Part shown: positions 77 to 33,062 of the stretch, piece after piece
Numbering within the stretch: position 1 is the first letter of the stretch
Layout: every line of letters begins with the position of its first letter
DNA from: an uncultured Bacilli bacterium
GTDB taxonomy: Bacteria > Bacillota_I > Bacilli_A > RF39 > UBA660
NCBI GenBank assembly: GCA_910587775.1
Contig: CAJUNF010000005.1
Location: 1 to 58,596 of the forward strand
Direction: 5' to 3'
Length of the DNA stretch: 58,596 bases
Position numbers and translations under genes: made by a program
The notes under the pieces: model-generated
What the model was told of the DNA's origin: nothing
Database searches by the model: none
The model's input: only the letters and a program-made list of their open reading frames with translations

Positions 77-3000
77 TTATTTTAATTTTGCTTTTTTATG
101 AAATAAATATCCTACACCAATTAATGATATTACAGAAAGAATTCCATATCCAGTAACAGAAGAAATTCCTGTTTGTGGATTTTTTATTTTTCTGATTGTC
201 ATTTCATGTGTTATTTTTTGTCCATTTACATCTACTGTAAAAGTCACTTTTCCTGGGTTTAAACCAGTAATAAGACCAGATTCATCAATCGTAGCAATTG
301 TTTCATCACTTGATGAATAAGTATAAATTAAATCATCTGTAACATCGGCTGGATTTAAAGTAACATTTAATTTTGTTGTATCTCCAACATTTAATTCATT
401 TACTGGATTTTCTAAAGAAATACTTTCTAAATGAACTTCTGTTACATTTACTTCTACACTTTTTTCAATGTCTTTATAAGTTGCAGTAATTGTTACAGTT
501 CCTTCTTTTTTACCTGTTACGATACCAAATTCATTTACTATAGCTATTTCTTCATCGCTACTTGTCCATTTAATTTGGTCTTTTTCAGTTGTATTTTCAG
601 GTGTTACTAATACTTCTAATTGTTTTTCTTCTTTTCTTTTTATTTCTAATTTATCAGTAGCAAATTCCATATCTGTAATAGGAATGATTTCTACTTCTAC
701 TGTTACAGTTACTTTCATACCGTTTGATAATGATCCTGTAATCACTGAGAATCCAGCATTTTTAGCTGTTACAATACCAGAATCATTTACAGTTGCAACT
801 GATTCATTATTACTTGTCCAAGTAATTGTTTGATCTGTTGCGTTTTCTGGATTAATTTTTGTTACTATAGTAGATGTTGTACCTTTTAATACTTTGATGT
901 TATCTTTAGAAACTAAATGAAAGCTTGTTACTGGAATAACAACATTTACAGTTATTTTGTCTTCTTTGGAACCAGATTTTGCTGTAATGATTGCTGTACC
1001 AGCATTTTTCGCAGTAATCATACCTAGATTATTTACACTGACAATATTATTATCACTACTTGACCAGTTTAATGTATCTGAGTTATCACTTGGTTCTACT
1101 TTAGCTGTTAAATTATTTGTTGTATTGATATTCATTGTAATTTCTTTTTGGCTATTAATTGTAACGCTAGTGGTAGGAATGGTTACCGTAACATTTAATG
1201 AAGCAGTTAACCCATTTGAAGTTGTTGCTGTAATGGTCGCAGAACCTTTTCCAACTGATTTTACAACGCCATTATTAGTTATAGTTGCAACGCTGTTATC
1301 ACTACTTGTCCAAGTAATGGTTTTGTCACTAGAAGTTATATTAGGAGTTAATTTTACTTCTAATTTTTCTTCTTTTCCTTTTCCTTCTAATGTTAGTGAA
1401 TCTTTATTTAATTCTATTTTAGTAATTGGATCAATGACAGTAATTGTAGAAGTTACAGTTTCTTTATGTTGAGGGTTCATGTTACTAGTCCAAGTTGCCG
1501 TAATAATTGCAGTACTTGCTGAACCATCATTTGGTGAAATTGCTGTTACTTTTCCATTTTCAACACTTGCTGCAGCAGGATTACTACTTGTCCAAGTAAT
1601 CACTCCAGTTTCTTCTGCACCAGTAGTTGGTGTAGCAATTAAATCAATTGTTTCTCCCTTTTTTAAAGTTTGATTTGGAATATTGATATTTAAGCCTTCT
1701 ACTTCTTTTAGTACTTTAATTTTTCTTGTTTTTGTAATACTTCCACTTTGAATTGTTAGCGTAGTTTCTCCAGCATTTTTAGCAGTAATCAGTCCAGTAT
1801 TATCAACAGTTGCAATTGTGTTATCTAAAACTCTCCAAGTGATGGTCTTATCATTTGCATTTGCTGGTATGACACTAGCTATTACTTTTTGTGTTTGATT
1901 TGGAAGTAATGTAACCGTATCTGCAATATCAATAGAAATATCTGTAACAGGAACATTTACGTTTACTTTAACAGAATCAGAATGATTACCTACCGTTAAC
2001 GTAATAGTTGCTTCTCCACCATCTATCGCTGTTACTTTTCCAAATTGATCAACAGTAGCTACAGAAGTATTACTACTTGTCCATTTTAATGTATCTGTAG
2101 TATCTGATGGTGTTACAACTCCAGTTAGTGTTTTTGTAGTATTTTTATCTATTGTAAAATCGGTTTCATTAATGCCAACACTTGTTGCAGGTGAAGTAAC
2201 ATTAAGTACTACACTATCTGTAAATTTTTCTGATGTTTCATTTGAAGTTGCAGTTACACTAATAGTTGTAGTCCCATTTTTTAAGATGCTTACTACCCCA
2301 TTATTATTTACAGTAGCTATAGATGTATTACTACTTGTCCAAGTATAATTAATCGTATCACTTGTTGTACTTGGAGTTGTCTTAGTTGTAAGAGTAATTG
2401 GACCACTTAATGTATTTTTATTTATTTCTAGTGTATTATTTGTAATTTCATTATTACTAATATTTACACCACGCAAGTGTTCTTTTACGTTTACTACTAC
2501 TTCAAATTCTTTTTGGAAAGCAGTTACTTTGATTTTAGCAGTACCAATTTTTAAACCAGTTACTACACCATTTTCTACTTTTACTACATCTAATCCTTCG
2601 GTTATTTGATAAGTGAAATTTTTATCATCGGTTGTATCTTTTGGTGAATAATCAACCACAATATTATCATTTTTATTAGAGCTTCCTAAATCAATTTCTA
2701 GTGTTGGTGTTGTTAAATTAATACTACTTTCAATAACAGGAACTCTTATAAATACACTTTCATTCACACCATTTACGGTTACTGGTGTAAGCGTTTGTCC
2801 ACCATCTGTTATTTTATTTGCTTCAATGTTTGTTAAAGTAATATCTGTTTTACCAGAAGCAGTTTCTAGTACTTCAAAAGTAATATCTCCAATATCTAAA
2901 CTAGTATTGGTTGGAGCACCCATATACATGATTGACCAAACTAAAAGTCCGTTTCCTTCATCCATCACATTTTCACTTGGGCTTGGATTTTTTGCTGTTG

Positions 3001-3301
3001 GATTATAACTTATTAATTTTAATTTTGTAGGGTCATAATTGATGAAGAATGATAATGAACTAAATTCTTTATCGTTTTCAAAATCAAGATGGTAAGTTAC
3101 TGTTTTTTTGGAAGCAGCTTCACTACGATCAATGATTGCATCTTTATCTCCCTGCGCTTCAATTACTGGATTTGTTACACTTATTTTTAGTGTTGGAGTT
3201 GCATCTGCTACTGCATAAGCAATAACTGAAACAAAACAGATTACACTAATGATTAAACCAGTCCACTTTTGTTTTAATTTCCATTTTCTTTTTTTTGTCA
3301 T
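77..3301 (-). CDS. Cell-wall-anchored surface protein: signal peptide, N-terminal cohesin-like module, 10 Big_2 (bacterial Ig-like group 2) domains, C-terminal NPQTG sorting signal
   Basis: ORF track 77-3310. The 3310 start is a GTG inside the SD (GAGGTG, 3308-3313). The ATG at 3301 lies 6 nt downstream and gives MTKKRKWKLKQKWTGLIISVICFVSVIAYAVADA (AxA cleavage site). There are ten repeats of the Big_2 signature xWTSSxxS(I/V)ATVxxxGxVTAxxxGxAxIT. The C-terminus is KNPQTG + hydrophobic GISSVTGYGILSVISLIGVGYLF + HKKAKLK, a sortase sorting signal. Confidence 0.9.
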   Translation of the reverse strand: MTKKRKWKLKQKWTGLIISVICFVSVIAYAVADATPTLKISVTNPVIEAQGDKDAIIDRSEAASKKTVTYHLDFENDKEFSSLSFFINYDPTKLKLISYNPTAKNPSPSENVMDEGNGLLVWSIMYMGAPTNTSLDIGDITFEVLETASGKTDITLTNIEANKITDGGQTLTPVTVNGVNESVFIRVPVIESSINLTTPTLEIDLGSSNKNDNIVVDYSPKDTTDDKNFTYQITEGLDVVKVENGVVTGLKIGTAKIKVTAFQKEFEVVVNVKEHLRGVNISNNEITNNTLEINKNTLSGPITLTTKTTPSTTSDTINYTWTSSNTSIATVNNNGVVSILKNGTTTISVTATSNETSEKFTDSVVLNVTSPATSVGINETDFTIDKNTTKTLTGVVTPSDTTDTLKWTSSNTSVATVDQFGKVTAIDGGEATITLTVGNHSDSVKVNVNVPVTDISIDIADTVTLLPNQTQKVIASVIPANANDKTITWRVLDNTIATVDNTGLITAKNAGETTLTIQSGSITKTRKIKVLKEVEGLNINIPNQTLKKGETIDLIATPTTGAEETGVITWTSSNPAAASVENGKVTAISPNDGSASTAIITATWTSNMNPQHKETVTSTITVIDPITKIELNKDSLTLEGKGKEEKLEVKLTPNITSSDKTITWTSSDNSVATITNNGVVKSVGKGSATITATTSNGLTASLNVTVTIPTTSVTINSQKEITMNINTTNNLTAKVEPSDNSDTLNWSSSDNNIVSVNNLGMITAKNAGTAIITAKSGSKEDKITVNVVIPVTSFHLVSKDNIKVLKGTTSTIVTKINPENATDQTITWTSNNESVATVNDSGIVTAKNAGFSVITGSLSNGMKVTVTVEVEIIPITDMEFATDKLEIKRKEEKQLEVLVTPENTTEKDQIKWTSSDEEIAIVNEFGIVTGKKEGTVTITATYKDIEKSVEVNVTEVHLESISLENPVNELNVGDTTKLNVTLNPADVTDDLIYTYSSSDETIATIDESGLITGLNPGKVTFTVDVNGQKITHEMTIRKIKNPQTGISSVTGYGILSVISLIGVGYLFHKKAKLK
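191..2713 (-). repeat. Intragenic tandem array of 10 Big_2 domains (about 84 aa each)
   Basis: Recurrent TWTSSN/D..ATV..G.VTA.N.G.A.IT motifs in the translation; boundaries are approximate. Confidence 0.8.
2738..3199 (-). other. Cohesin-like N-terminal module of the wall-anchored protein
   Basis: About 154 aa directly after the signal peptide: ...TYHLDFENDKEFSSLSFFINYDPTKLKLISYNP...GLLVWSIMYMG...IGDITFEVLETASGKTDITLTNIEA... This follows the cohesin pattern (F.I.YD...L.....; later I..I.F.V......). Called by eye only. Confidence 0.45.
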
Positions 3302-3376
3302 AGTAAACACCTCTATTATTAAGTTTATTTTATCATTTTCTTTGATTAATTACTATCTATTTTCTTCTATTTTACA

Positions 3377-3562
3377 CTATTCACTTTTTAAGCCAAGACT
3401 TCTTCTTAAAATATAATAAACATCTCCTGCATCAATGCGATTGTTGTTATTGATATCTCCACGAATTAATTCTCCAGAATTTGGCTTATTTAATCCAAGA
3501 CTCATTCTAAGAGCTAGATAATGATCCAATGGATTTATTTTTCCATCACCATTAATATCTCC
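3377..3562 (-). other. Dockerin module (sequence class B)
   Basis: Two duplicated Ca-loop + helix segments: GDINGDGKINPLDHYLALRMSLG and GDINNNNRIDAGDVYYILRRSLG. Confidence 0.75.
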
Positions 3563-4264
3563 TTTTAAATAATCAAGAACTGTTACTTTAGTTTGTAACG
3601 TTTTCATACCATAACTTGCCGTAACGTTTGTTTCACCAGTTTGATTAGCTTTTATTTTTCCACCTTTATCTATACTTACTATTGTATTATTTTTAGAAGT
3701 AAAGGTAACTTTATTTGGAGAAATGATTAGCCCATTTGGAACATACATTTCTAATTGATAGGTTTCTCCGACACTTAGTTTTAAATCATTTACATTTAAT
3801 TTTAATTCATCATAATTTACAATATTTATTTCCTTTTCTATGTTATCAGGAGATAAAGGTGTTGAATCTGCAAATGATAATTTGGGACTCTCTAATTTTA
3901 AGTTAGCACTACAAGTGGTTTCTTTTGCTTTTAAAGTAACTTTTAACATAGTGAAATCTTTTTTCGTTCCCATTAAATTACTGTAAGCAAATTTTTTGCT
4001 TTTTTCATAATATGTAGCAAATGGATTCTGTATTTCCACTTTAACTATATCAAAACAAGTTTCATCACTTACTGAAATGATTCCACCTGCGGATATTAAT
4101 TCAGATCCTTGAATATTTCTAAATATAAGATTTTGAGTGAATTCTTCTGTTATTTCAAATAATTCATTTCCTTCCCATGCTATATTGGCTGATGAGCTTG
4201 CGTATACACACATGGGTATTGCTAAGAGCAATAAAAAGGAGATGAAAATATGATTTTTCTTCAT
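3377..4264 (-). CDS. Secreted adaptor-like protein: signal peptide, cohesin-like module, one Big_2 domain, C-terminal dockerin
   Basis: ATG at 4264 with AGGAGA SD (4271-4276). Signal peptide MKKNHIFISFLLLLAIPMCVYASSS. N-module aa 24-148 is paralogous to that of the next gene. Big_2 motif VTFTSKNNTIVSIDKGGKIKANQTGETNVTA. Dockerin tail GDINGDGKINPLDHYLALRMSL...GDINNNNRIDAGDVYYILRRSL. Confidence 0.88.
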   Translation of the reverse strand: MKKNHIFISFLLLLAIPMCVYASSSANIAWEGNELFEITEEFTQNLIFRNIQGSELISAGGIISVSDETCFDIVKVEIQNPFATYYEKSKKFAYSNLMGTKKDFTMLKVTLKAKETTCSANLKLESPKLSFADSTPLSPDNIEKEINIVNYDELKLNVNDLKLSVGETYQLEMYVPNGLIISPNKVTFTSKNNTIVSIDKGGKIKANQTGETNVTASYGMKTLQTKVTVLDYLKGDINGDGKINPLDHYLALRMSLGLNKPNSGELIRGDINNNNRIDAGDVYYILRRSLGLKSE

Positions 4265-4282
4265 ACAAACTCTCCTTTCTAA

Positions 4283-6649
4283 TTATTCATGATAGCGACT
4301 TGATCTTGATTTTCTTGCTTCTTCTTCTTTTCTTAAAGCTTCTTTTTCACGATTCAATCGTTCTTGTTCATATAATAGTTTTAATTTTTTAGAATCTTTG
4401 GTTTCAATTGCTTCATTAATAGCATCAAAGATTTCATCTTTTGTGACAATTTCATCATATGGATCATATGGAATTTCTTCATATTTTGCTTCTTTTGTAT
4501 TTTCTTTGTCTTCTTTAAATTTCGTTTCTAATTCTTTTTCTGGATAACCAGTGTATTGATTTAATACTCCTCCAGCTTCTACAACATCATCATCTGTTCC
4601 ATTTTTAGATCCAAAATTAAATTCAGGTTTAAATTCAATTACTGGTGATGATGGTGACGCTCCATGAGCATCTACTACTGGAATTTTTGGAGTTTCTTCT
4701 TCTTTTCTTTTCTTTAGTAATAAAATTAGAATAAAGGTTAATAATCCAATTAATAATAATGATCCAAAAAGCAATAGCCATTGTCCAAGAGTAAGTCCTA
4801 AAAAGGTACTTTTTCCTTCTTTTGTAACATTTAAACGGTAGTATTGAACGAATCCATTTTCATCTGTTACTTTAATTAAAATAGCATTGTTTCCTTCTCT
4901 TAAATTTTCATTTCCTATAATTTCTACTTGGGAATTTTCAAATTCAGGAATAGCAGTAATATCAAGTTTATTTACTTTTCCTGTTACAGAAACTTCATAT
5001 TCATATTTATTTGATTCAAATCTTGGAGATATTTCTCCGTTTGTAATAATTAAATCTTTTAATTTATTTTGATTTACTTTTTCACTACGATTTACATTAA
5101 TTGTATAAACTCTTAAAGAGCCATCTTCTGCTCTTACCTCAATAGTAACTACATTCATTCCAATTTTAAAATTGTCATTTCCTATAATACTAATAGAGGC
5201 ATTTTTATCTTCAGCAAATAATTTTAAATCTAGTGATTCAACATCATTTGGTACTGTGATATTATAACTATTATTATTTTTATCAAATCCTGGTTTTAAT
5301 TCTCCATCATTTACCATAATACTTTCTAAGTAATTATTAGCAGATTTTGAAGGAGCGTTTGTATTAGATGCTGATTTACGATTTACATTAACAATATAAA
5401 CTTTTTCAGAACCATCTTCTGCTGTAACTGTAATACGTACAGTATTTACTCCTTCTTTCCAACCATTGTTACCACTTATTTTTACAGTAGCTTTTTCATC
5501 GTTTGGAAGAGCTGTTACATTTAAACCAGTAATGTTATTATTTACACTAATATTATAAGATGTTACATCTTTGTTAAAAGTTGGAATTAAAGTAAATCCT
5601 GAAACATCTAAGCTTTTTAGAGTTGCATCGTTATTTTTAGCTGGAACATCTGGTTGTTCATCTCTTTTTGTTACTGCTACTTCATATGTTTTTGTTGTTC
5701 CGTCTTCTGCTTTTACGACAATACTACAAGTTGTTGTTTTATCAGTAAGATTACATGTTTCACCACTTATGAGTGTTGCTTTATCATGATTTGGAATGGC
5801 ATCAAATTTTACACTAGTCGCATTAGAAGCTGTTTCCATTGTGTAACTTGTTGTATTTGGAGTAAAGGATGGTGATAAAGTATTACCAGTAGATGTTAAA
5901 GATTTTAGGGTTGCATCATTGCTTTTTCCTGGAACAACTGGATCTGGATCTTTTTTTGTAACTACTACTTTGTAAGTTTTTGTTGTTCCGTCTTCTGCTT
6001 TTACGGTAATGTTACAAGTTGTTACTTTAGAAGATAAACTACATGTTCTACCACTTGTTACACTTGCTTTTGGATCTGTTACTGAAGTATTAAAAGTAAT
6101 ACTTCCTGTATTAGCTGGAATACTATCAATAGTATAATTAGTAGTACCAGAGTTAAAGGACGGTGAAAGTGTACCAACACTTGGTGATAATGATTTTAAA
6201 GTTGCATCACTACCAGCTGCTCTTACTGTGATTGTTTTTGAGAATGTTGCTGGAGATAATCCTGTATCATCTGCGAATGCTAATTTTGGTTTTGTAATAT
6301 TGATTGTAGCTGTACAAGGAGAGGATCCAGCTGTAAATTTAACAGTTGTAAGTTGCGTGTCATTTCTTGTACCATTTAAATCAGTCCATGCAAATTTTCT
6401 AGAACCAGTATAACTTAGACAAGTATTATCTGAAGATGATATTTCCCCACCTACAGAAATGATTTCTGATCCTTGAATACCAGTTGCCCAAATAGTCATT
6501 GTTAATTCTTGTCCAACGAGAACTGTATCATTACCACGCCATTCAAATCTTGCAGTAGTACCATCTGCAGCAAAAGATTGTGGTAATCCTGCTGCTATTA
6601 ATAAGCTTATAGCAATGGATAAGATTCCTATTCTTAATTTTCGTTTCAT
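4283..6649 (-). CDS. Type I membrane surface protein: signal peptide, cohesin-like module, 5 cadherin-like beta-sandwich repeats, TM helix, about 145-aa charged cytoplasmic tail
   Basis: ORF track 4283-6667. The first ATG overlaps the SD (ATGTTTGGAGGATTTAAAATG), so the ATG at 6649 preceded by GGAGGA is preferred, giving MKRKLRIGILSIAISLLIAAGLPQSFAADG. Five repeats of DATLKSL..G.LSP.F...T.Y.......V.....A.....A.......(C/G)...V.V.AEDG..K.Y.V.V.(K/R). TM helix GQWLLLFGSLLLIGLLTFILILLL followed by KKRKEEE and a Glu/Lys-rich tail. Confidence 0.88.
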   Translation of the reverse strand: MKRKLRIGILSIAISLLIAAGLPQSFAADGTTARFEWRGNDTVLVGQELTMTIWATGIQGSEIISVGGEISSSDNTCLSYTGSRKFAWTDLNGTRNDTQLTTVKFTAGSSPCTATINITKPKLAFADDTGLSPATFSKTITVRAAGSDATLKSLSPSVGTLSPSFNSGTTNYTIDSIPANTGSITFNTSVTDPKASVTSGRTCSLSSKVTTCNITVKAEDGTTKTYKVVVTKKDPDPVVPGKSNDATLKSLTSTGNTLSPSFTPNTTSYTMETASNATSVKFDAIPNHDKATLISGETCNLTDKTTTCSIVVKAEDGTTKTYEVAVTKRDEQPDVPAKNNDATLKSLDVSGFTLIPTFNKDVTSYNISVNNNITGLNVTALPNDEKATVKISGNNGWKEGVNTVRITVTAEDGSEKVYIVNVNRKSASNTNAPSKSANNYLESIMVNDGELKPGFDKNNNSYNITVPNDVESLDLKLFAEDKNASISIIGNDNFKIGMNVVTIEVRAEDGSLRVYTINVNRSEKVNQNKLKDLIITNGEISPRFESNKYEYEVSVTGKVNKLDITAIPEFENSQVEIIGNENLREGNNAILIKVTDENGFVQYYRLNVTKEGKSTFLGLTLGQWLLLFGSLLLIGLLTFILILLLKKRKEEETPKIPVVDAHGASPSSPVIEFKPEFNFGSKNGTDDDVVEAGGVLNQYTGYPEKELETKFKEDKENTKEAKYEEIPYDPYDEIVTKDEIFDAINEAIETKDSKKLKLLYEQERLNREKEALRKEEEARKSRSSRYHE
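4808..6211 (-). repeat. Intragenic array of 5 cadherin-like beta-sandwich repeats (about 94 aa each)
   Basis: Repeated LKSL..xG.L.P.F......Y....  ...V.VTAEDG..K.Y.V.V motif; resembles the Pfam cadherin-like beta-sandwich family (PF12733 as I recall). Confidence 0.75.
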
Positions 6650-6702
6650 TTTAAATCCTCCAAACAATATTTATAGAGCATATGCTCCTTATTATTAAAT
6701 TT

Positions 6703-6732
6703 ATTATACAACTTTTATAACATTACTGTCTA
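6703..6732 (-). promoter_or_regulatory. Sigma-A type promoter candidate for the three-gene operon 6649->77
   Basis: The minus strand reads TAGACA (6727-6732), an 18-nt spacer, then TATAAT (6703-6708), about 50 nt upstream of the ATG at 6649. It lies downstream of the terminator at 6812-6840. Confidence 0.5.
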
Positions 6733-6811
6733 CAAAATTCGACATTATTCTGCAAAATAAAAATGGGATGTTATTTCTTTTTAGTCCTTCAAATTTGGGA
6801 ATAAACTAATA

Positions 6812-6840
6812 GAAAAAATGCAGACTTATTTTAGTCTACA
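6812..6840 (-). terminator. Rho-independent terminator after the 2,410-aa protein gene
   Basis: Minus strand TGTAGAC-taaaataa-GTCTGCA (7-bp stem, one G-U pair) followed by TTTTTTC, 7 nt after the stop at 6847-6849. Confidence 0.6.
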
Positions 6841-6846
6841 TTTAAT

Positions 6847-7050
6847 TTATTCAATTGGTCTTGGATGAATAAAACTTCTCTCTAGATAATGGTTAATTAC
6901 TTTTCCTGAATCTAGTGGGTCAATCTCTCCATCAATATTTATATCACCAGCGATTGCATATGCATTTAAAAGTTCTGTTCTTTCTAGATAATGGTTAATA
7001 ATTTTTCCAGAATCTAATGGGTCAATTATTCCATCACCATTAACATCTCC
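6847..7050 (-). other. Dockerin module (sequence class A, near-perfect internal duplication)
   Basis: GDVNGDGIIDPLDSGKIINHYLER / GDINIDGEIDPLDSGKVINHYLER. These are canonical DxNxDGxIDxxD Ca loops, each followed by a helix. Confidence 0.8.
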
Positions 7051-14079: not shown

Positions 14080-14154
14080 AATATACACTCCTATATCATA
14101 TTCACCCTATTGTCGTCATTATAACATATTTATTTTTATTATTCTATTTATTTT

Positions 14155-14346
14155 TTAATTTACTGTGTCTATTTTCATTTGCATGTATCTTTGTAGTTTT
14201 ACACGGTCTGGTCCTGTTACTTCTTTATCATTTGTTACATCTGCTGCTATCATTTCTATTTCTTCTAATTCTACTTTCATTTGCATGTATCTTTGTAGTC
14301 TTACTCGGTCTGGTCCTGTTATGTAGCCATCTCCTGTTAAGTCTCC
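14155..14346 (-). other. Dockerin module (sequence class C)
   Basis: Duplicated segments GDLTGDGYITGPDRVRLQRYMQMK / ADVTNDKEVTGPDRVKLQRYMQMK; more divergent than classes A and B. Confidence 0.6.
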
Positions 14347-14700
14347 TTTTACTACTATGATTAGTTCATCATAACAAACACCTTCTACGATGAGTTTTAT
14401 TTTCATGAATGTTGATGCTATCATAGTTTCTTTATCTACTTCGTTTCCTTCTTTATCGTAGACATATAATGTAGTAGCTTCATTTTCAAAATGATTTAGA
14501 TAGTCTTTTAGTAAAATACCTGGTTCAGACCCATAAGTATATTCTAGTTTACTTCCATCTTCTTTTTCTTTTCGCTCTATTTGATAGACACTACTTGTTA
14601 TTTTCTTTCTAATTACTTTTACTTCTATACTTGCTTTGATATTTTCATCATAATTACTTACTACATGAATGATAGTTGTTCCATAACCAACACCTGTAAT
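14155..14700 (-). repeat. 546-bp near-identical copy A (3' end of the 2,705-aa gene) of a dispersed direct repeat; partner at 22382-22927
   Basis: Hand alignment at offset 8227 finds 2 mismatches: 14203 (synonymous CGT/CGA) and 14672 (Ile/Thr). Identity drops to roughly 75-80% from 14701 to about 14865, and beyond that only protein-level similarity remains. Confidence 0.9.
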
Positions 14701-22381: not shown

Positions 22382-22573
22382 TTAATTTACTGTGTCTATT
22401 TTCATTTGCATGTATCTTTGTAGTTTTACTCGGTCTGGTCCTGTTACTTCTTTATCATTTGTTACATCTGCTGCTATCATTTCTATTTCTTCTAATTCTA
22501 CTTTCATTTGCATGTATCTTTGTAGTCTTACTCGGTCTGGTCCTGTTATGTAGCCATCTCCTGTTAAGTCTCC
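22382..22573 (-). other. Dockerin module (sequence class C, identical to 14155-14346)
   Basis: Same GDLTGDGYITGPDRVRLQRYM / ADVTNDKEVTGPDRVKLQRYM tail. Confidence 0.6.
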
Positions 22574-22927
22574 TTTTACTACTATGATTAGTTCATCATA
22601 ACAAACACCTTCTACGATGAGTTTTATTTTCATGAATGTTGATGCTATCATAGTTTCTTTATCTACTTCGTTTCCTTCTTTATCGTAGACATATAATGTA
22701 GTAGCTTCATTTTCAAAATGATTTAGATAGTCTTTTAGTAAAATACCTGGTTCAGACCCATAAGTATATTCTAGTTTACTTCCATCTTCTTTTTCTTTTC
22801 GCTCTATTTGATAGACACTACTTGTTATTTTCTTTCTAATTACTTTTACTTCTATACTTGCTTTGATATTTTCATCATAATTACTTACTACATGAATGGT
22901 AGTTGTTCCATAACCAACACCTGTAAT
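22382..22927 (-). repeat. 546-bp near-identical copy B of the direct repeat (partner at 14155-14700)
   Basis: See copy A. Offset is 8227 bp, with 2 mismatches found by eye. Confidence 0.9.
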
Positions 22928-25900: not shown

Positions 25901-28900
25901 GGTTCCATTTCCAGTAACATTTGAGGTTTTGGATTTTGGTGACCCTGTAATATCAATACTACTAATTTCATATTGAACGTTTATTAAGTAATCATAATTT
26001 TTGGTAGGGTCTATATTTTCTATTACGACACTACCGCGATTGTTGGTAATAGATTCTAATTCAGTATTATCATCAAGTCTTTTATTTACTTTGATGGTAT
26101 AAACTCTATCTACTCCATCTTCACTAGTAACAGTTATTGTAATTATATTTTCACCTTTTACTAATGCATGCGTTCCATTTCCACTAATTGTTGAAGCATC
26201 ATCTTCCTTGATTCCTTTTAAAGTAATTTCATTTACAGATCCATCTACATCAATGGTATATGATAGATTTTCTTTATTAAATTCTTCGTTTAGTGTTCCA
26301 CCTGTTACTTCAATATTTTGAAGATAATTATTAGTACTTGATTCTTTTAAGACAACAATTTGATAAACCTGATAGGTTTTATCTTCTGCAATACTAGTTA
26401 TAACAATAATATTTGATTTTTCTGTTAGATTATTATTTCCTCTTATTGTATAAGTAGTGGTATTTTCTTCTGGTGTTACCTTAACATTTAATTTATCTAC
26501 ACTTTTAGGAATTGTCACAGTATAATTTTTGATATCTTTTGAAAATTCAGGACTTATTTCATAGCCTTCAATTTCAATATTTAATAAAGAGCTATTATTA
26601 TTACGAGATTTCATAATAACTATTTCATAAATGTTAGTGTCTCCAGATTCACTTGTAACTGTAATTGGGAAGCTATTTTTACCACTTACTAGTTCAAAAA
26701 CACCTGTTCCAGTTACTGATCCAGCTTCTGAAGCGGCATTAATCGTAATTTTTTTGGTAGTTGCATCAACAACAGCAGTATAGTCATTTAAAAGTTTATT
26801 AAATGTTGGAGTAAGTTCTACTTTTTCTTGGTTTTCTTTTATAACTTCTAAATTACTTAAGAACGTATTGGTACTTTGCTCTTTGTAAGTATATAAAATA
26901 TAAGTTTTTTGATTTTTATTTGGAGCAGTTACTAAAATACGAATTTCATTTAATCCAGTTACTAAATTTTCATTTCCAGAAATTGTAACTGTTGCATCAG
27001 GATTTTCTGGAATCGCTTCTAATTCTATTTGATTAAATTCTGCTGGAATTGTAATGTAATACTCATAAGTAGATGGGTTAAATGTTATTTCTGTTTTTTC
27101 ATTTTGAGGATTGGTAATATTTAAAATAGCAAGATTATTGTTACCTGAATCATCTTTTCTTATTTTATAAGTATATGTAGTAGTATGAAGTCCATCTTCG
27201 CTTGTTATATCAATTTCAATGATATTGATACCACTATGAATTTCAAAGGTATCACTTGTTTGTTCTATACGATTTTCTTCTGCATTTTCTGGTTCGTTAC
27301 GATAATATTTTATCGTTTGATAATCACTTTTTAAGATAGGTGTTAAAGATATTTTTTCTGTCAGAAATGGAAGTAAGATTTCATAACTTGTAATGTCACT
27401 ATCAAATGTATAGTTACAGTAAGAAGGACTTAAACCACATAAATAAGCTACAGGATTTTTTAAGACGATATCTTTTGATTTACTATCATCAGATGGTTCG
27501 CGATTTATTTTTAAGGTGTAGGTTTTATTTGCTCCATCTTTTGTAGAAACAACAATTTTATGTTCATTTAATCCTGGGTGTAATGTAATATCACCATTTC
27601 CTAAAATGTTTGCTTCTTGAGATTTTGGAACTGCTAATATGTCGATTGAATTGTATTCTTTTGGTAAATCGATTTCATAAGTATAAGTCCATGGTTCAAA
27701 AGGAATGGTTACATTTCCATGATCTATTATAATGTTATCTAAGAAGGTATCTCCGACAATACCTGGAGTGGCTGTAATTTTAGCATATCCATTTCCACGG
27801 TTTCCATCCATTAAATTGGTTCCATCGTAGTTTGGCATTTTTTGATTACCAGAAATCATTTCTGTATCATTTAAATAATATTTTTGATCTACTGAATAAC
27901 CGTTTGGAACGTTGTTTTTAGAATTAGATGTCCAGATAAAGCCTGAACCTCCTCCAGCACCATGCCATCCAGAGCCACGAGAATTATATCCGCCATACCA
28001 GCCCCCTCCTGCTCCTGGTCCGCCATATCTTGCACTGATGTAACTAATGGTAGAAGCACTTGCGTTAAATCCTCCACCAAAAGACCAACCAGTAGTTTGC
28101 GTTCCTGGTGCACCATAAGAAGTTGAATAAGAGTAGCCAGATAATCCGCCACCATCTCCTCCGCGTTCACCGTCCATTCCGCCGCCACCTCCGCCGCCAG
28201 CGACAATAAGACGTGATAAAAGAGATGTTTGGTCATTCCAAGGACCACTTACAAGACGAATATCGGTAGACCCTCCACCACTTGCAGCAGGATCATTACT
28301 GGTGTTGATAGCTTTGTAACCTGAACCTCCACCATTAAAGCTTTGGGCTGTTGTACATATTTTTCCACCACACCAAGTACCTTCTTTTCCAACGTAAATA
28401 TAGAGAGTATCTCCCTTATTTAAATAAACAGAACCTTTGGCGTATCCTCCAAGTCCGCCAATACCTAGTTCACTATTTTGATGATGTCCTCCACCACCAG
28501 CACCCCATACTTCTAAAGTATAAAGTGCTGGAGATGGGGCAATAAATGTTTGATAATCACCTGTGTATGTAAATCCTTCGTTTACAGGGTCTAATAGTGG
28601 TTCTATTCGTTTTAGATTTAAAGTATAAACTGTACTACTAACTCCATCTAAATCAACATTTATAGTAATTTGTTTTTCTTTTTCTGAAACATATCGATTT
28701 TCTACAATTGTTACTTTGGCTTCTTCAAAAAATGGTGTTGCAATCATTGGGACTTCTCTTGTAAAGTTTAAAATTTCTAGAGTGTAATCTTTTTTATTAG
28801 GTGAAAAAGCACTTGTTAAAACACCACCATCAATTTCTAAACTTTTTAATAGACTAGCTCTTTTTCTTTTAAAGGTAAAAGTATATGGTTGATTTTGTAA

Positions 28901-31666
28901 ATCTCCTTCACTTGAAACTACAATATTAATTACTAATTCATTTTCTGTAAATTCATAAATTGTATTTTCTGGTATTTTTTGTCCTGGATATAATTTTAAT
29001 AGTTCTAAATTAATTTTTGTTATTTCTGTTGGTAATTCCATTTCGTAATCAAACTTAGTTGGGTCAAAATTCTCATAAAGTAGACCATTTACTTTAAAGC
29101 CTTTTAACTGAGCACTAGCGCTTGCTGGTCTTGTTACATGTATTGTATAAATAGAGATTTCTCCATTTAAATTTGTAAATGTAATGGTAAAGTCTTGGTT
29201 TCCTGCTGGAACATTAAATGTATCTAGACCTGTTATTAAAGCTTGTTGTTTTTTCGTGATAGCATCAAAAGTAATTGTAGTATCTTCAACATTTAAAGAA
29301 AGATCATAATCAAATGTACCTTCATGAAATTCTGGAGTTAACACGCCTTTATCTACTGTTATTTCTAATAGTTCATCTAAATCCTCTGTGGAATAATAAG
29401 AAATTTTAGCATATCCTGCGGCATTATTTCCTTGCATGACACTACTTCCATCATAAGTTGGTATGTATTGATTTCCTGCTAAAGTTTCGGTTTCTTTTAA
29501 ATAATATTTGTTTGTTGCTATATATCCGTCTGGAACATTTTTAGAAGAAGATTCATTTAAAACAAATCCGGATCCTCCTCCAGCACTATGGAATCCTCTT
29601 CCCAAAGAGTTTTTTCCACCATACCAGCCGCCACCGCCACCAGATCCACCATATTGGGAACTAATGTATCCGATGGTACTTGCATTAGCGTTAAAGCCTC
29701 CACCAAAAGACCAACCTGTAGTTTGGGTTCCGGGTGCACCATAAGAGGTAGAATAAGAGTATCCAGATAATCCTCCGCCATCTCCTCCACGTTCGCCATC
29801 CATACCAGATCCACCACCACCGCCTGCAACGATGATACGTGATAGAAGTGAGGTTTCATTGTCCCAAGGACCAGGAACAAGACGAATATCGGTAGCCCCT
29901 CCACCACTGGCAACAGGATCTCTAGTTGAATTCATAGTTTTGTAACCAGTTCCTCCACCATTAAAGCTTGGAGATGAAATACAAATAGAATTGCCACACC
30001 AAGAACCTTCTGCTCCAACATAAATATACAATTTATCTCCCGCATTTAAATATAGCTTTCCTTTGGAATATCCTCCTAGTCCAGCTATTCCTAATTCTGA
30101 ATTTTGGTGAGATCCACCACTTCTTGCTCCCCATACTTCTAAGGTATAATAAGTGGAGTATGGAGCAATAAATTCTTGATAATCTCCAGTATAATTAAAT
30201 GTTGTTTCTAGTGGTTTACTATTTACCGTTTGTTCAAATTCTCTATTAATATTAAACTTATAAGTTGTATTCTCACAATTTGGTTTACTTACATTAATAG
30301 TGACTATATTTTTTCCTACACTCAAATCATTTGAGGATATGGTGTAAGTTGTTTCTTCATCAGTTTCAATCAGTGGATTAAATTTAGTTGTAGTATGATT
30401 TACTGTAATATCGTATTCATAAACATTACTTTCAAACGAAGTAAAGTTTTCAAATGTTACATTATTTAATTTAGCTTTAGCAATTACGGGATAAATATTG
30501 TAGATCAAGATATTTCCTTCTAAATCCATTAATATTACTTGATGAATCTTATCTTTTTCTAAAGTTGTTTCTCCTACATTGTACGCCCACATAAATTTTG
30601 TTTCATCATAGGTTATAGTAGTTTTAAAAGGAGATGCTGGTAAAATTGTTTCATAATTTAAAGTGTTATTTTCAAAAAAAGGAGTTAGTTCTAAATCAGT
30701 TAAAGATATCGGTGGCATTTCTCCATCTAAAGGAGATGTTTTTTCTAATAAGGTTATTTTGGCATATCCATCCGCTTTATTTCCAATCATCGTACTTTTT
30801 CCATCATGAGTTGGCATGGATGCATTTCCAGCTATTGTTTTTGCATCGGTTAAAAAATACTGTTCACTAACATGATAACCTTTTGGGACATTTAAAACAG
30901 ACTCTGGAGTCCATATAAAACCAGACCCTCCACCAGATCCTTCCCATTTACTAGGACCAGCTGAGTAATATCCGCCATACCAGCCGCCGCCTCCACCATT
31001 TCCACCATAAGTAGAATTAATGTAAGAAAGGGTATTTACATTGGCGCTAAATCCTTCTCCAAATTTCCATCCAGTAGTTTGAGTTCCACCATAACCAGAT
31101 TCAGCATTAACAAGAATTCCTTCTAAACCACCACCGTGGCCACCAGGTTCGCCATTATCTACACCGCCTCCTCCACCACCGCCTGCAACGATGATACGTG
31201 ATAAAAGAGAAGATGAATCATTCCATTCTCCTTTTGTAAAACGAATGTCTGTAGCTCCTCCACCACTGGCAACAGGATTCCAAATATCACTAGCAGCAGT
31301 TCTTTTCCAGCCAGAGCCACCACCATTATATCCTCCAGCAACGGTACAATATCCACCTTGGCAAAACGTACCTTTTCCACCAACATAGACATATAATTTC
31401 TCACTTGTTTTTAATTGTATTACACCTGCCGAGTAACCGCCTTTACCACTTGGTCCAAGATAGCTTTGTTGATGGTCTCCTCCGCCTTCTGCTCCCCAAA
31501 CTTCTAATTTATATTTTCCTTGAACAGGGGCAATAAATTCTTGTGAGTCACCTGTATATGAAAAAACAAATTCTTCATTAATTTCTACAGCCTTAATTTT
31601 TAGTGGAAAAAAAAGGAATAAAAAAAGAAAAATAAAGAAATTTTTTTGATATTTATTGATACTCAT
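22382..31666 (-). CDS. Giant secreted protein (3,094 aa): signal peptide, 3 glycine-rich domains interleaved with cadherin-like repeats (about 22 in total), Big_2, X-like module, C-terminal dockerin
   Basis: ORF track 22382-31681 (TTG start). The ATG at 31666 preceded by GGGAAGTG gives MSINKYQKNFFIFLFLFLFFPLKIKAVEI. GRDs lie at 30746-31576, 29393-30208 and 27770-28582. The last 170 aa or so are identical to the neighbouring giant protein. Confidence 0.9.
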   Translation of the reverse strand: MSINKYQKNFFIFLFLFLFFPLKIKAVEINEEFVFSYTGDSQEFIAPVQGKYKLEVWGAEGGGDHQQSYLGPSGKGGYSAGVIQLKTSEKLYVYVGGKGTFCQGGYCTVAGGYNGGGSGWKRTAASDIWNPVASGGGATDIRFTKGEWNDSSSLLSRIIVAGGGGGGGVDNGEPGGHGGGLEGILVNAESGYGGTQTTGWKFGEGFSANVNTLSYINSTYGGNGGGGGWYGGYYSAGPSKWEGSGGGSGFIWTPESVLNVPKGYHVSEQYFLTDAKTIAGNASMPTHDGKSTMIGNKADGYAKITLLEKTSPLDGEMPPISLTDLELTPFFENNTLNYETILPASPFKTTITYDETKFMWAYNVGETTLEKDKIHQVILMDLEGNILIYNIYPVIAKAKLNNVTFENFTSFESNVYEYDITVNHTTTKFNPLIETDEETTYTISSNDLSVGKNIVTINVSKPNCENTTYKFNINREFEQTVNSKPLETTFNYTGDYQEFIAPYSTYYTLEVWGARSGGSHQNSELGIAGLGGYSKGKLYLNAGDKLYIYVGAEGSWCGNSICISSPSFNGGGTGYKTMNSTRDPVASGGGATDIRLVPGPWDNETSLLSRIIVAGGGGGSGMDGERGGDGGGLSGYSYSTSYGAPGTQTTGWSFGGGFNANASTIGYISSQYGGSGGGGGWYGGKNSLGRGFHSAGGGSGFVLNESSSKNVPDGYIATNKYYLKETETLAGNQYIPTYDGSSVMQGNNAAGYAKISYYSTEDLDELLEITVDKGVLTPEFHEGTFDYDLSLNVEDTTITFDAITKKQQALITGLDTFNVPAGNQDFTITFTNLNGEISIYTIHVTRPASASAQLKGFKVNGLLYENFDPTKFDYEMELPTEITKINLELLKLYPGQKIPENTIYEFTENELVINIVVSSEGDLQNQPYTFTFKRKRASLLKSLEIDGGVLTSAFSPNKKDYTLEILNFTREVPMIATPFFEEAKVTIVENRYVSEKEKQITINVDLDGVSSTVYTLNLKRIEPLLDPVNEGFTYTGDYQTFIAPSPALYTLEVWGAGGGGHHQNSELGIGGLGGYAKGSVYLNKGDTLYIYVGKEGTWCGGKICTTAQSFNGGGSGYKAINTSNDPAASGGGSTDIRLVSGPWNDQTSLLSRLIVAGGGGGGGMDGERGGDGGGLSGYSYSTSYGAPGTQTTGWSFGGGFNASASTISYISARYGGPGAGGGWYGGYNSRGSGWHGAGGGSGFIWTSNSKNNVPNGYSVDQKYYLNDTEMISGNQKMPNYDGTNLMDGNRGNGYAKITATPGIVGDTFLDNIIIDHGNVTIPFEPWTYTYEIDLPKEYNSIDILAVPKSQEANILGNGDITLHPGLNEHKIVVSTKDGANKTYTLKINREPSDDSKSKDIVLKNPVAYLCGLSPSYCNYTFDSDITSYEILLPFLTEKISLTPILKSDYQTIKYYRNEPENAEENRIEQTSDTFEIHSGINIIEIDITSEDGLHTTTYTYKIRKDDSGNNNLAILNITNPQNEKTEITFNPSTYEYYITIPAEFNQIELEAIPENPDATVTISGNENLVTGLNEIRILVTAPNKNQKTYILYTYKEQSTNTFLSNLEVIKENQEKVELTPTFNKLLNDYTAVVDATTKKITINAASEAGSVTGTGVFELVSGKNSFPITVTSESGDTNIYEIVIMKSRNNNSSLLNIEIEGYEISPEFSKDIKNYTVTIPKSVDKLNVKVTPEENTTTYTIRGNNNLTEKSNIIVITSIAEDKTYQVYQIVVLKESSTNNYLQNIEVTGGTLNEEFNKENLSYTIDVDGSVNEITLKGIKEDDASTISGNGTHALVKGENIITITVTSEDGVDRVYTIKVNKRLDDNTELESITNNRGSVVIENIDPTKNYDYLINVQYEISSIDITGSPKSKTSNVTGNGTYNLIPGEENKITLRVTAEDGSAKDYVIKVVRDKSDNDDLDFLYIEEGGLSPIFNETTIYYEVKVPFNTNILHMTAIPESPYAFVDVTDSNNIDTYKFTIDVSSLNPNDTKDIDIVVTAQNGNVKIYTTHIIKQESTNEDLTLSSLDTNRGELTPTFNPTILNYELTVEHDIEDITITASAFDESATIKGLGTYPLKVGKNSIPIFVVGNSQIQKDYQIIITRKKSSDASLTNLVVKNHVLSPSFSKDVTEYHLTTSKTNLEFTMINPTETDATYEIIGNQNFQTGENIVTIKVTAPDGETTKEYKIIVEKTGSKNNNLASLEVVGYNLTPDFHKGVTFYATEVNNDVNSVVISANPEDTNATITGTGLKKIETGENYFEIVVTSETEDKKVYTVLITKEASDNNYLASLNTNEGTLNPIFQKETTDYTINVSHKIESISLNGKAEDVNATITGFGNYNLNEGENNITILVTSESGLVRSYNITIIRESIISAFLKELNVTNFALDTEFNKEILEYFITVPNDTEQLNITAIAEDKNANVEITGQDSLEIGMNEIHIKVTASDSTTTLEYIIYVNKEMSTNNYLSSLIPSIGNLDPIFDPTVMDYTIEVPRETQNITINATTQDVGSKIISGLGEHELNIGSNLIVIKVKSAIGITRTYKVNVIRTPANNNYLKNLKVMHIKEDLPLNPEFQKETNEYSLTVPSDLNFIQIKAEAESEFATVTNTGTKELVTGLNRFEIEVKAEDGTINTYILNVTKEVSSNNYLSSLIPSTGVLSPEFNKELLEYNLDLSYEISELSFNATLESNLASVKGLENKIVPEGLSVREITVTAEDGSVRVYKININKETASEVRLKELAIIDYPITFDSDTFTYTIEVPHSKDILYQNEITAIPMDPNATVNLMGDLNLYAGASTEYIIEVIARDGYTTQEYKIIIKRAKFDLESITPSETSILLDIAETKQITYTFTPEITSFTEVKWMSDDETIASVDEFGNITGVGYGTTTIHVVSNYDENIKASIEVKVIRKKITSSVYQIERKEKEDGSKLEYTYGSEPGILLKDYLNHFENEATTLYVYDKEGNEVDKETMIASTFMKIKLIVEGVCYDELIIVVKGDLTGDGYITGPDRVRLQRYMQMKVELEEIEMIAADVTNDKEVTGPDRVKLQRYMQMKIDTVN
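27770..28582 (-). other. Glycine-rich domain (GRD) copy 3 of the 3,094-aa protein
   Basis: NEGFTYTGDYQTFIAPSPALYTLEVWGAGGGGHHQNSELGIGGLGGYAKGSVYL..LYIYVG...FNGGGSGY...ASGGGSTDIRL...SRLIVAGGGGGGGMDGERGGDGGGLSGY...GTQTTGWSFGGGFNA...GGPGAGGGWYGG...GAGGGSGFIW...GNGYAKIT. Confidence 0.75.
29393..30208 (-). other. Glycine-rich domain (GRD) copy 2 of the 3,094-aa protein
   Basis: TTFNYTGDYQEFIAPYSTYYTLEVWGARSGG...GLGGYSKGKLYL..LYIYVG...FNGGGTGY...ASGGGATDIRL...SRIIVAGGGGGSGMDGERGGDGGGLSGY...GTQTTGWSFGGGFNA...GGSGGGGGWYGG...AGGGSGFV...AAGYAKIS. By eye, about 80% DNA identity to copy 3 in the core. Confidence 0.75.
30746..31576 (-). other. Glycine-rich domain (GRD) copy 1 of the 3,094-aa protein
   Basis: EEFVFSYTGDSQEFIAPVQGKYKLEVWGAEGGG...GKGGYSAGVIQL..LYVYVGG...GGYNGGGSGW...ASGGGATDIRF...SRIIVAGGGGGGGVDNGEPGGHGGGLEG...GTQTTGWKFGEGFSA...GGNGGGGGWYGG...GSGGGSGFIW...ADGYAKIT. 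Confidence 0.75.
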
Positions 31667-31783: not shown

Positions 31784-31810
31784 AAAAAAAATACCCACTT
31801 TCGTAAGTAT
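31784..31810 (-). terminator. Rho-independent terminator after the 152-aa membrane protein gene
   Basis: Minus strand ATACTTAC-gaaa-GTGGGTAT (8-bp stem with 2 G-U pairs and a GAAA loop) followed by TTTTTTTT. Confidence 0.65.
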
Positions 31811-31848
31811 TTTTGATATTTACCCATTTTAAGATCAAGAACTAAAAA

Positions 31849-32307
31849 TTATTTTTCTTCAAAACCACATTCTAAAACGATTTCCATACGATAGTCTTTT
31901 TTGCCATATGGTTCTTGTGGATAAATAATTACTTTTGTATCTTTATTATTACATGCTTCATTTGTTTTAGGATTTTTAAAAGCATCTAGCTTTTCTTTAT
32001 TTTCTTCTTCCTTATATCTAGATAATCCATCTAAATTAATTTTAATTCCTAACTCTGTATAGTTTTTTAAAAATTTTGCTCTTTCCTCATCATTTTTACC
32101 AATTTGTTCATAGTATAAATCTTCATAGAAAGATACGCCCATTTCCTTCATATATTTTTTTAGTGTTTCTTCTTTACTATTTCCACTTAATAATACAATT
32201 ACTAAAATAATGATTGCTACTAGTGCAATTAAGCCAATTCCGGCAATCAAACATTTCTTTTTATCTTTTTTTAATTCTTCAATCCATAATTTTATTTTGT
32301 TTTTCAT
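31849..32307 (-). CDS. Hypothetical membrane-anchored protein (N-terminal TM helix, 152 aa), co-oriented directly downstream of srtB
   Basis: ATG at 32307. Contains KKCLIAGIGLIALVAIIILVIVLLSG as a TM anchor. The Lys/Glu-rich ectodomain has two Cys. No recognised family. Confidence 0.7.
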   Translation of the reverse strand: MKNKIKLWIEELKKDKKKCLIAGIGLIALVAIIILVIVLLSGNSKEETLKKYMKEMGVSFYEDLYYEQIGKNDEERAKFLKNYTELGIKINLDGLSRYKEEENKEKLDAFKNPKTNEACNNKDTKVIIYPQEPYGKKDYRMEIVLECGFEEK

Positions 32308-32348
32308 ATATATTACTCCTTTACTTGCAATTATTATAGCATATTCTT

Positions 32349-33062
32349 TTATAATTCATCAAATATTCCTGCATGAATAATAACTCTTTTGGTTTTGTCA
32401 TAATAACAAGTCGATAATGTTAATGTTTTTTTGGGAATTTGATTCATAACAAATGATGAATCATTTTTTTGAAAGTATTTTTCTTGTTTATTCAAAGGAT
32501 TTTCATCCGATTCTTCTGTAATATATGCTGCATAAACTTGATATTCTTGTTTTTCAAATTCAGTATGAATTATGATTTTAATATCATTTCCTAATTTACC
32601 TTCTTGTAATTTTATAAGTTCTCCAAAAATAGTATCTTTATAAGTGTTATGTCCAAATAAAATAGTATTGTTATCCGTAAAATCCGATTTATTTTGATAA
32701 TTCATAAATATAGATCCATAAATATTATAATTTTTTAGGACATCATGATTTAGATAAAAGGTATTGTTTATTCCTTTTACAATCGCATAATTAATGTTTG
32801 TTTTAGGAATCTCAATCCAGCCTATGATATCTGGATTTAATTCTTTTAATTTGGAAAAGTTTATTTTTTCTTCCAACGCTCCATCCGTCTCATCTATTTG
32901 AATTACTTGATTATAAATGATTTGTTCTACTTCTTCTGATTTTTTTTCATAATATTTTTTCTTTCCTATTTGATAGATGGATATACCAAATATTATGAAT
33001 AAGATACAAATGGAAATATTAATTATTAATTTTTTATATTTTAATTTTAATTTTTTTTTCAT
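32349..33062 (-). CDS. srtB: Class B sortase
   Basis: N-terminal TM anchor (LIINISICILFIIFGISIY). Motifs: IGWIEIPKTNINYAIV, NTILFGHN (catalytic His), TLTLSTCYY (TLxTC Cys), KRVIIHAG (Arg). The ORF track starts at a TTG at 33086 that lacks an SD; the ATG at 33062 (MKKKLKLKYKK...) is preferred, but the start remains uncertain. Confidence 0.85.
   Translation of the reverse strand: MKKKLKLKYKKLIINISICILFIIFGISIYQIGKKKYYEKKSEEVEQIIYNQVIQIDETDGALEEKINFSKLKELNPDIIGWIEIPKTNINYAIVKGINNTFYLNHDVLKNYNIYGSIFMNYQNKSDFTDNNTILFGHNTYKDTIFGELIKLQEGKLGNDIKIIIHTEFEKQEYQVYAAYITEESDENPLNKQEKYFQKNDSSFVMNQIPKKTLTLSTCYYDKTKRVIIHAGIFDEL

Follow-up and report, generated by a model that had tools for sequence, protein, structure and literature searches.

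The described systems closest to the one treated here are built on cohesin–dockerin pairs. Ruminococcus flavefaciens and R. champanellensis have a sortase-anchored cohesin, ScaE, an adaptor, ScaB, and an X-dockerin adhesion protein, CttA (PMC5429695, PMC7456326). In Acetivibrio cellulolyticus (ScaB/ScaC) and related multi-tier cellulosomes, orthogonal cohesin–dockerin tiers extend the complex from the cell (PMC4959524). The amylosome of Ruminococcus bromii uses cohesins and dockerins for a non-cellulose purpose and includes the sortase-anchored cohesin protein Sca2 (PMC4611034), and pairs outside cellulosomes have been described from Clostridium perfringens and from all three domains of life (Peer et al. 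2009, cited in PMC6487960). Here we analyse six genes, A to F, and a neighbouring sortase gene in contig CAJUNF010000005.1 of an uncultured Bacilli bacterium (assembly GCA_910587775.1); the whole stretch of 58,596 nucleotides is called the window. We consider it fairly probable from sequence and predicted structure that this locus encodes an enzyme-free, multi-tier cell-surface fibre joined by three different cohesin–dockerin pairs.

The window has a guanine-plus-cytosine content of 29%. Six successive open reading frames on the minus strand occupy positions 77–31666, as an earlier reading of the sequence (the first-pass annotation) had placed them; their total is approximately 10,400 codons, not the roughly 9,400 given there. 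The Sec-type signal peptides that it attributed to all six were also assigned by us, by eye, from a basic n-region, a hydrophobic core and an A-x-A-like cleavage site at each N-terminus. The features on which the argument depends are as follows.

77–3310, minus strand: gene A, putative wall-anchoring scaffoldin, with a signal peptide, one cohesin, about ten Big_2 domains (Pfam Big_2 in 10 stretches, E 2e-91) and an NPQTG sorting signal
2768–3136, minus strand: cohesin of A, extent of the Pfam match (PF00963; module scanned alone, 42.6 bits, E 9e-11, against a gathering cut-off of 24.1 bits)
80–181, minus strand: sorting signal of A, consisting of NPQTG, a hydrophobic stretch and HKKAKLK; the sole such signal in the six frames of the window
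3377–4264, minus strand: gene B, adaptor of 295 amino acids (aa), with a cohesin fold at 3815–4195, Big_2 at 3578–3778 and a dockerin at 3380–3565 (Pfam, AlphaFold2)
4283–6667, minus strand: gene C, type I membrane anchor, with a cohesin-like module at 6218–6568, five cadherin-like domains at 4811–6172, a transmembrane segment at 4715–4804 and a cytoplasmic tail at 4286–4714
6847–14088, minus strand: gene D, putative extension scaffoldin, with a cohesin at 13369–14004, 20 cadherin-like domains at 7297–13332, an X module at 7054–7296 and a dockerin at 6850–7053
14155–22272, minus strand: gene E, putative tip protein, with glycine-rich domains at 21310–22179 and 19666–20565, 21 cadherin-like domains, Big_2 and X at 14350–14862 and a dockerin at 14158–14349
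22382–31666, minus strand: gene F, putative tip protein, with glycine-rich domains at 30707–31585, 29345–30232 and 27716–28597 and 21 cadherin-like domains
22577–23089 and 22385–22576, minus strand: C-terminal part of gene F, with Big_2 and X in the former interval and the dockerin in the latter
32349–33086, minus strand: sortase, closest to class B (probable ATG at 33062; PF04203, 67.7 bits)

As in the ScaE/ScaB/CttA system of Ruminococcus, the wall would be reached through a sortase-anchored single cohesin and adaptors carry both a cohesin and a dockerin, and, as with CttA, a non-enzymatic, dockerin-bearing adhesion protein with a conserved module before the dockerin would be docked at the surface. 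Unlike that system, the present one has no enzymes or carbohydrate-binding modules (CBMs), and its cargo would be cadherin-like stalks of 2,700–3,100 aa with glycine-rich tips; since each protein has one cohesin, the tiers would form a linear chain and not a branched enzyme tree. NPQTG and a class-B-like sortase take the place of LPXTG, there is a parallel membrane anchor, C, and the host is an uncultured gut member of the Bacilli. With the adaptor scaffoldins of A. cellulolyticus the locus shares several orthogonal cohesin–dockerin specificities in tiers, but whereas the tiers of multi-tier cellulosomes amplify the number of enzymes, those proposed here would add length, with one protein per tier. 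The R. bromii amylosome is likewise a non-cellulose use of cohesins and dockerins in a gut Firmicute with a sortase-anchored cohesin protein, but its GH13 amylase cargo has no counterpart in this locus. [quoted passage not shown] Sortase-assembled pili and giant repetitive adhesins offer a functional analogy only, that of a long fibre with a tip adhesin and a wall anchor fixed by a dedicated sortase; in pili the subunits are joined covalently by pilin sortases, whereas the joints here would be non-covalent and Ca-dependent, with A the only sortase substrate.

Sortase-anchored single cohesins, adaptor scaffoldins, X-dockerins and a non-enzymatic docked adhesion protein are thus elements already known. 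What sets the locus apart is the combination of a closed enzyme-free set, one cohesin per protein, giant cadherin-like stalks with glycine-rich tips, two anchors, a polymorphic pair and an uncultured Bacilli host. In the literature searched we found no description of an enzyme-free cohesin–dockerin fibre, of PF12810 together with a dockerin, or of such systems in Erysipelotrichales, and no strain polymorphism of cohesin–dockerin pairs.

All four N-terminal modules are cohesins, in three very divergent classes (A, B/C and D), since A is identified by Pfam, B and D by the folds of their AlphaFold2 models, and C by homology to B together with Pfam-positive orthologues; the first-pass annotation had called them cohesin-like. 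Sequence searches with the A module, the D module and the D-family profile found no significant cohesin match among PDB sequences, and fold comparison was therefore needed. The B model, built on a six-sequence alignment, has a predicted local distance difference test score (pLDDT) of about 90 over the module, and its best single-domain PDB matches are cohesins with template modelling (TM) scores of 0.65–0.72: C. perfringens 2vo8 and 2jh2, Archaeoglobus 2xdh, OlpC 4dh2_A and CaCohA2 6kgf_C, with C. perfringens 2w1n also among the best structural matches. For D (pLDDT 83.6, predicted TM score 0.81), all of the top 50 PDB matches are cohesins, with TM scores up to 0.72, the closest being ScaC Coh3 bound to the ScaB dockerin (4uyp). 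By these matches both models share the nine-stranded beta-sandwich jelly-roll fold of cohesins, and C is covered through its module's 36% identity to that of B, neither of the two having a Pfam match.

The orthologues of C in other lineages pass the Pfam Cohesin threshold (33.7 and 31.4 bits in locus L015, 30.8 bits in L022); the one with 33.7 bits is colinear with gene C and 41% identical to it. An exhaustive HMMER search with the D module gave 25 relatives, nearly all of them located just after the signal peptide of dockerin-ending cadherin-like proteins of 2,000–2,900 aa, and two being short module-plus-dockerin adaptors. Six of 17 D-family modules match Pfam Cohesin, two of them above threshold (P0011 with 36.2 bits and P0007 with 27.4 bits). 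It should be noted that word-indexed homologue searches with D-module and A-cohesin fragments came back empty, which we take as a limit of the search method, since near-identical proteins exist (L007).

The tails of B, D, E and F score 28.1, 34.0, 28.8 and 28.1 bits against Pfam Dockerin_1 (PF00404), all above the gathering threshold of 22.9 bits, and the E and D tails scanned in isolation reach 33.1 and 38.3 bits. Both segments of approximately 22 residues, each a Ca-binding loop (D/N/T at 1, 3, 5, 9 and 12) followed by a helix, can be seen in every one of the four. A profile of the family's X-dockerin tails matches solved dockerins (XynY 2ccl_B and 1ohz_B, the ScaB dockerin 4uyp_B, R. bromii Amy16 and Amy12) at E 1e-14 to 1e-7, versus only about 1e-3 for calmodulin-type EF-hands. 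By these profile matches the tails are dockerins rather than generic EF-hands, in line with the four dockerin-type tails previously proposed. A single adaptor with both module and dockerin, the 295-aa protein B, had been recognised; D likewise carries both, so that there are two adaptor-type proteins. In B homologues that are 55–60% identical overall the dockerin is nearly invariant, while the cohesin is only about 40% identical.

In D, E, F and their relatives, though not in B, the dockerin is directly preceded by the conserved X module of approximately 85 aa (…GTGMxIKLIxxG…D…IVVKGD; 7054–7296, about 14350–14600 and about 22577–22830, minus strand). No Pfam family covers it, and no PDB sequence matches it.

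The remainder of the proteins is made up of repeats. With a repeat hidden Markov model built from the locus itself, we counted 5 cadherin-like units in C, 20 in D, 21 in E and 21 in F. Pfam also found Cadherin-like (E 3.5e-137 in protein E), Big_2 and ALK_LTK_GRD domains (PF12810, gathering score 24.5 bits), the last at 194 bits (E 5.5e-57) in two copies in E and at 426.5 bits (E 5.2e-128) in three copies in F, so that the giant cadherin-like stalks with ALK-type glycine-rich domains described earlier are borne out. The glycine-rich domain of F has no sequence match to any PDB chain. In the repeat map the remaining segments are assigned as signal peptide, cohesin, glycine-rich domain, Big_2, X, dockerin, or transmembrane segment and tail; approximately 85 residues after the first glycine-rich domain of F have no domain assignment and are too short for an enzyme. 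No glycoside hydrolase, carbohydrate esterase, polysaccharide lyase, CBM, S-layer homology or protease family was detected by Pfam at E ≤ 0.01 in proteins A–F. Judged by domain content, proteins A–F are enzyme-free and hide no enzyme-sized segment, because the repeat map leaves no unassigned segment large enough. The description of these proteins as beta-sandwich repeats only therefore holds, and, with no enzymes and no CBM in proteins A–F of the window, the locus lacks what defines a cellulosome or an amylosome; the first-pass annotation had also rejected a cellulosome.

Evidence on which dockerin binds which cohesin comes from related loci. A core cassette is found again in at least 25 loci of gut metagenomes from mouse, human and other sources, divergent lineages included, and reads as a giant ending in Big_2-X-dockerin, then a D-like cohesin-stalk-X-dockerin protein, then a C-like protein with a cohesin, a stalk, a transmembrane segment and a tail. 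The C-like gene is usually followed by a second membrane-anchored cohesin protein, C2, and giants with a visible 5′ end carry glycine-rich domains.

Two pairs of human-gut loci, L022 versus L024 and, independently, L035 versus L037/L038, have 99–100% identical DNA over approximately 12 kb, and only one sharply bounded tract of about 1.3 kb departs from this. This tract starts approximately 120 codons before the stop of the giant, includes the last part of X and the dockerin in full, continues over the intergenic region and the D signal peptide, and ends at about D residue 216, the exact junction of the cohesin and the first cadherin-like repeat. Within it the dockerins are 49–53% and the D cohesins 40–41% identical, whereas outside it the D dockerin, the C and C2 cohesins, the stalks and the tail are 98–100% identical. 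The dockerin alleles keep the Ca-loop scaffold (GDxxGDGYxTVxD), and their differences are concentrated in the helices. Since the D dockerin and the C/C2 cohesins are unchanged in the swaps, the E/F dockerin cannot depend on C or C2, and since the D dockerin is unchanged, the D cohesin cannot depend on it. The giant's dockerin and the D cohesin, swapped alone, should therefore be mutual partners, leaving the D dockerin to serve C and/or C2. These comparisons of sequence indicate that the E/F-type dockerin binds the D cohesin.

In agreement with this, eight dockerin types and eight cohesin types, typed across 25 loci by phmmer-based calls, show a perfect 1:1 association, and a mirror-tree style correlation over seven loci gave r = 0.90 for the E/F dockerin and the D cohesin; over the same seven loci it does not separate a D dockerin–C pairing from shared phylogeny. 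Because the tract boundaries lie at module edges in two independent events, the dockerin–cohesin pair appears to be maintained as a unit. In this respect the swaps are analogous to toxin–immunity cassettes such as CT/CdiI of contact-dependent inhibition (CDI), in that two neighbouring modules, predicted to interact, are replaced together between near-identical strains with sharp boundaries; unlike a toxin and its antidote, the modules exchanged here would be structural connectors.

The 3′ ends of E and F form a direct repeat of 711–713 nucleotides (14155–14865 and 22382–23092, minus strand), 95% identical and approximately 8.2 kb apart, which encodes Big_2, X and the dockerin; the remainder of the two proteins is about 35% identical, and E and F are therefore expected to share one partner, D. 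The repeat indicates gene conversion or a recent duplication of the Big_2-X-dockerin end, and it is a possible substrate for deletion or misassembly.

For the two lower joints, gene order, elimination and co-conservation suggest that D would pair with C or B, and B with A. At E→D, D→C and B→A a dockerin-coding 3′ end is followed by the cohesin-coding 5′ end of the next gene, the exception being F, which is followed by E, a protein without a cohesin. For B and A in particular, the B dockerin is nearly invariant, the cohesin is the best-conserved stretch of A (85–90% versus about 73% for A in comparison with the L001 lineage), and the two are encoded back to back.

Anchors occur on cohesin-bearing proteins only, and D, E and F have none of their own. 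As read previously, A is the wall-anchored module-bearing protein and C the type I membrane one. The C-terminus of A reads NPQTG-ISSVTGYGILSVISLIGVGYLF-HKKAKLK; no second sorting signal occurs in the six frames of the window, and the earlier statement that this is the sole NPQTG substrate holds on that scale, whereas the rest of the genome may encode others. The sortase carries the motifs LFGHN, TLSTC and KRVIIH, and its best NCBIfam class is B (TIGR03064, 122.6 bits, E 1.6e-35, aligned over 8–234 of 235), under the equivalog cut-off of 153.75 bits. The earlier designation as sortase B is thus backed by a full-length best match that stays short of the equivalog level, and the enzyme can be called most like class B. 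The tail of C is the best-conserved part of the whole system, being 48–69% identical across lineages with cohesins 25–40% identical, which suggests a cytoplasmic partner. This tail (4286–4714, minus strand) has the motif VIEFKPEFNFGSKNGTDDDVV and a charged, helix-like C-terminus, and no Pfam match.

From these elements an order of assembly can be proposed. E and F would be the tips, with their ALK-type glycine-rich domains distal (N-terminal) on approximately 21 cadherin-like domains each, and their common dockerin type would plug into the N-terminal cohesin of D. D would add about 20 domains, and its dockerin would plug into a B/C-type cohesin. It could dock on the type I membrane protein C, the five domains of whose stalk may be enough to cross the wall, or alternatively on the small adaptor B, whose own dockerin would plug into the cohesin of A. 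A, on its ten-domain Big_2 stalk, would be covalently fixed to peptidoglycan at NPQTG by the class-B-like sortase. A beta-sandwich domain is roughly 4 nm long, and at this length per domain the A-B-D-E chain would reach a few hundred nanometres. In ALK ectodomain structures, the region homologous to the glycine-rich domains takes part in ligand binding. By this analogy, and because the glycine-rich domains are multiplied and placed at the tip, the most likely role of the fibre is long-reach adhesion through them.

Beyond the core cassette, the locus has parts of narrower distribution. The closest genome is the metagenome-assembled genome MGBC163973 of an uncultured Bacilli bacterium from a mouse gut catalogue, at 94% identity, and the C-B-A synteny is kept in a lineage that is approximately 60% identical (L001). 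A scan with the transmembrane segment and cytoplasmic tail of C gave 80 metagenomic loci, many labelled human gut, and homologues of B form only four clusters in 5.8 billion proteins. In L020 the third gene (5172–7112, plus strand) encodes a single protein that contains a B/C-type cohesin, three Big_2 domains, an HPKTG sorting signal and a hydrophobic tail; by its domain content it is a combination of the A and B functions in one sortase substrate, and it looks like an evolutionary intermediate between the membrane-anchored C2 and the split B-plus-A of the window. Because the core cassette recurs widely as a membrane-anchored set and L020 has A and B merged, the sortase, A and B of the window look as if they had been added in one lineage to a membrane-anchored core, providing a wall anchor. 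The spread of the cassette in gut metagenomes, the sortase/A/B add-on and the polymorphic connector pairs were all absent from the first-pass annotation.

The second interface also varies. Against the L001 lineage, nucleotide identity is about 78–88% over C-B-A, falling to 37–60% exactly over the C and B cohesins (6263–6584 and 3900–4316, minus strand), that is, hypervariability localised to modules. This would fit both cohesins serving the same fast-changing D dockerin, the D gene of the L001 lineage not having been recovered. In L001 a RelB/YafQ-ParE toxin–antitoxin pair (7465–8044) lies directly downstream of the A homologue; it is absent from this place in the window.

Two further features of the locus should be mentioned.

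6816–6843 and 6703–6732, minus strand: terminator-like hairpin 3′ of D and best promoter-like site 5′ of C, respectively, from a consensus scan only
31849–32307, minus strand: single-pass membrane protein of 152 aa, no Pfam family

With this hairpin and promoter-like site between D and C, C-B-A is possibly a transcription unit of its own, and their position is consistent with the separately conserved C-B-A block. Homologues of the 152-aa protein, 53% identical, adjoin the cassette in at least five other loci (L015/L018, L034, L049, L050 and L051), at varying positions and sometimes in two copies, and it is probably an accessory or assembly factor; a metagenome scan with this protein as the query found nothing. 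An open reading frame of 171 aa antisense within gene A (957–1472, plus strand), hydrophobic and of low complexity, is most likely a spurious shadow of the Big_2 repeats.

The flanks of the locus consist of housekeeping genes (Lon, trigger factor, GreA, MltG, RuvX, alanyl-tRNA synthetase, transketolase and LexA), and a phage or mobile-element origin was rejected on this ground. The alanyl-tRNA synthetase (45167–46915, minus strand; 582 aa, catalytic core plus tRNA_SAD) is shorter than is typical of bacteria, which may reflect a compact enzyme or a truncation of the call. The window also encodes a SirA-like protein and a sigma factor (50210–50635 and 56920–57696, minus strand), and CotE comes right after the cassette in L015/L018 (L015 15628–16173). 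On account of these sporulation-related genes near the cassette, the hosts are likely spore-forming Bacilli.

Several points weigh against the proposed fibre. The window's own B, C and D modules are below the Pfam Cohesin threshold, and profile–profile comparisons of the D family with the A cohesin and with the B/C modules were insignificant, for which reason we describe the three cohesin classes as very distant from each other. The dockerin of B is modelled by AlphaFold2 at low confidence (pLDDT < 50). In the DNA the dockerin lies next to the cohesin with which it is swapped, and linkage alone would yield covariation. The pairings of D with C or B and of B with A are drawn solely from the three pointers given above. 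The analysis covers one contig of 58.6 kb, and dockerin or cohesin genes elsewhere in the genome are possible. Finally, we know of no function or ligand of bacterial ALK-type glycine-rich domains.

The last point leaves room for an assembly put together as proposed and serving a structural purpose, whether as a fibrous coat or spacer, as a linker of cells in chains or as a surface structure associated with sporulation. Arrays of cadherin-like and Big_2 domains are generic spacers, and sporulation genes are nearby, SirA in the window and CotE beside the cassette in L015/L018. However, this adjacency is not conserved across loci, and distal glycine-rich domains multiplied to two in E and three in F resemble a binding tip, as does the part that the homologous ALK region plays in ligand binding; we regard a purely structural role as unlikely, if conceivable.

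Somewhat less credit is due to an enzyme-recruiting scaffold of the cellulosome or amylosome kind, in which the cohesins would mainly capture dockerin enzymes encoded elsewhere and the giants would be part of the cargo. Only one contig is in view, Ruminococcus dockerin proteins are mostly scattered over the genome (PMC2930009, PMC4611034), and the locus has four cohesins for three dockerin classes. Yet every cohesin class can be matched to a dockerin within the locus, the cassette is conserved as a closed enzyme-free set in at least 25 loci, proteins A–F lack a CBM, and each scaffold protein has one cohesin where enzyme-integrating scaffoldins typically have multi-cohesin arrays. We therefore find this explanation rather improbable.

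That A–F are six independent giant adhesins, with tails as Ca-dependent folding or stability modules, N-terminal modules as Ig-like caps and swaps as neighbours at a recombination hotspot, is very doubtful: although some 1.3 kb holds both of the swapped modules and dockerins with no known partner are frequent outside cellulosomes (Peer et al. 2009, cited in PMC6487960), anchors are confined to cohesin-bearing proteins and missing from D, E and F, in each of two independent events both ends of the tract coincide with module edges, the dockerin alleles differ mostly in the helices with the Ca-loop scaffold kept, and the B dockerin is far more constrained than the remainder of B.

The proposed fibre, joined by three cohesin–dockerin pairs, has a wider reading that we put forward tentatively, as something that may turn out otherwise: gut Bacilli may build a non-covalent, pilus-like fibre hundreds of nanometres long, in which the plug between tip and stalk would be a strain-polymorphic lock-and-key that privatises secreted tips, so that they fit only the strain's own stalks. 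If so, plug swapping would amount to self-recognition at the level of strains, a role not so far ascribed to cohesin–dockerin pairs. Protein engineering could take orthogonal connector pairs ready-made from the natural allele swaps, which also offer a handle on the evolution of binding specificity. Cohesin–dockerin pairs are known almost entirely as organisers of enzymes; in this closed gene set of uncultured Bacilli-type bacteria from mouse and human guts they seem to act as mechanical connectors only, stacking giant stalks on two alternative anchors. If this is true, bacterial ALK-type glycine-rich domains would gain a candidate role, and Gram-positive bacteria would have a third route to long surface fibres, beside sortase-polymerised pili and single giant adhesins.

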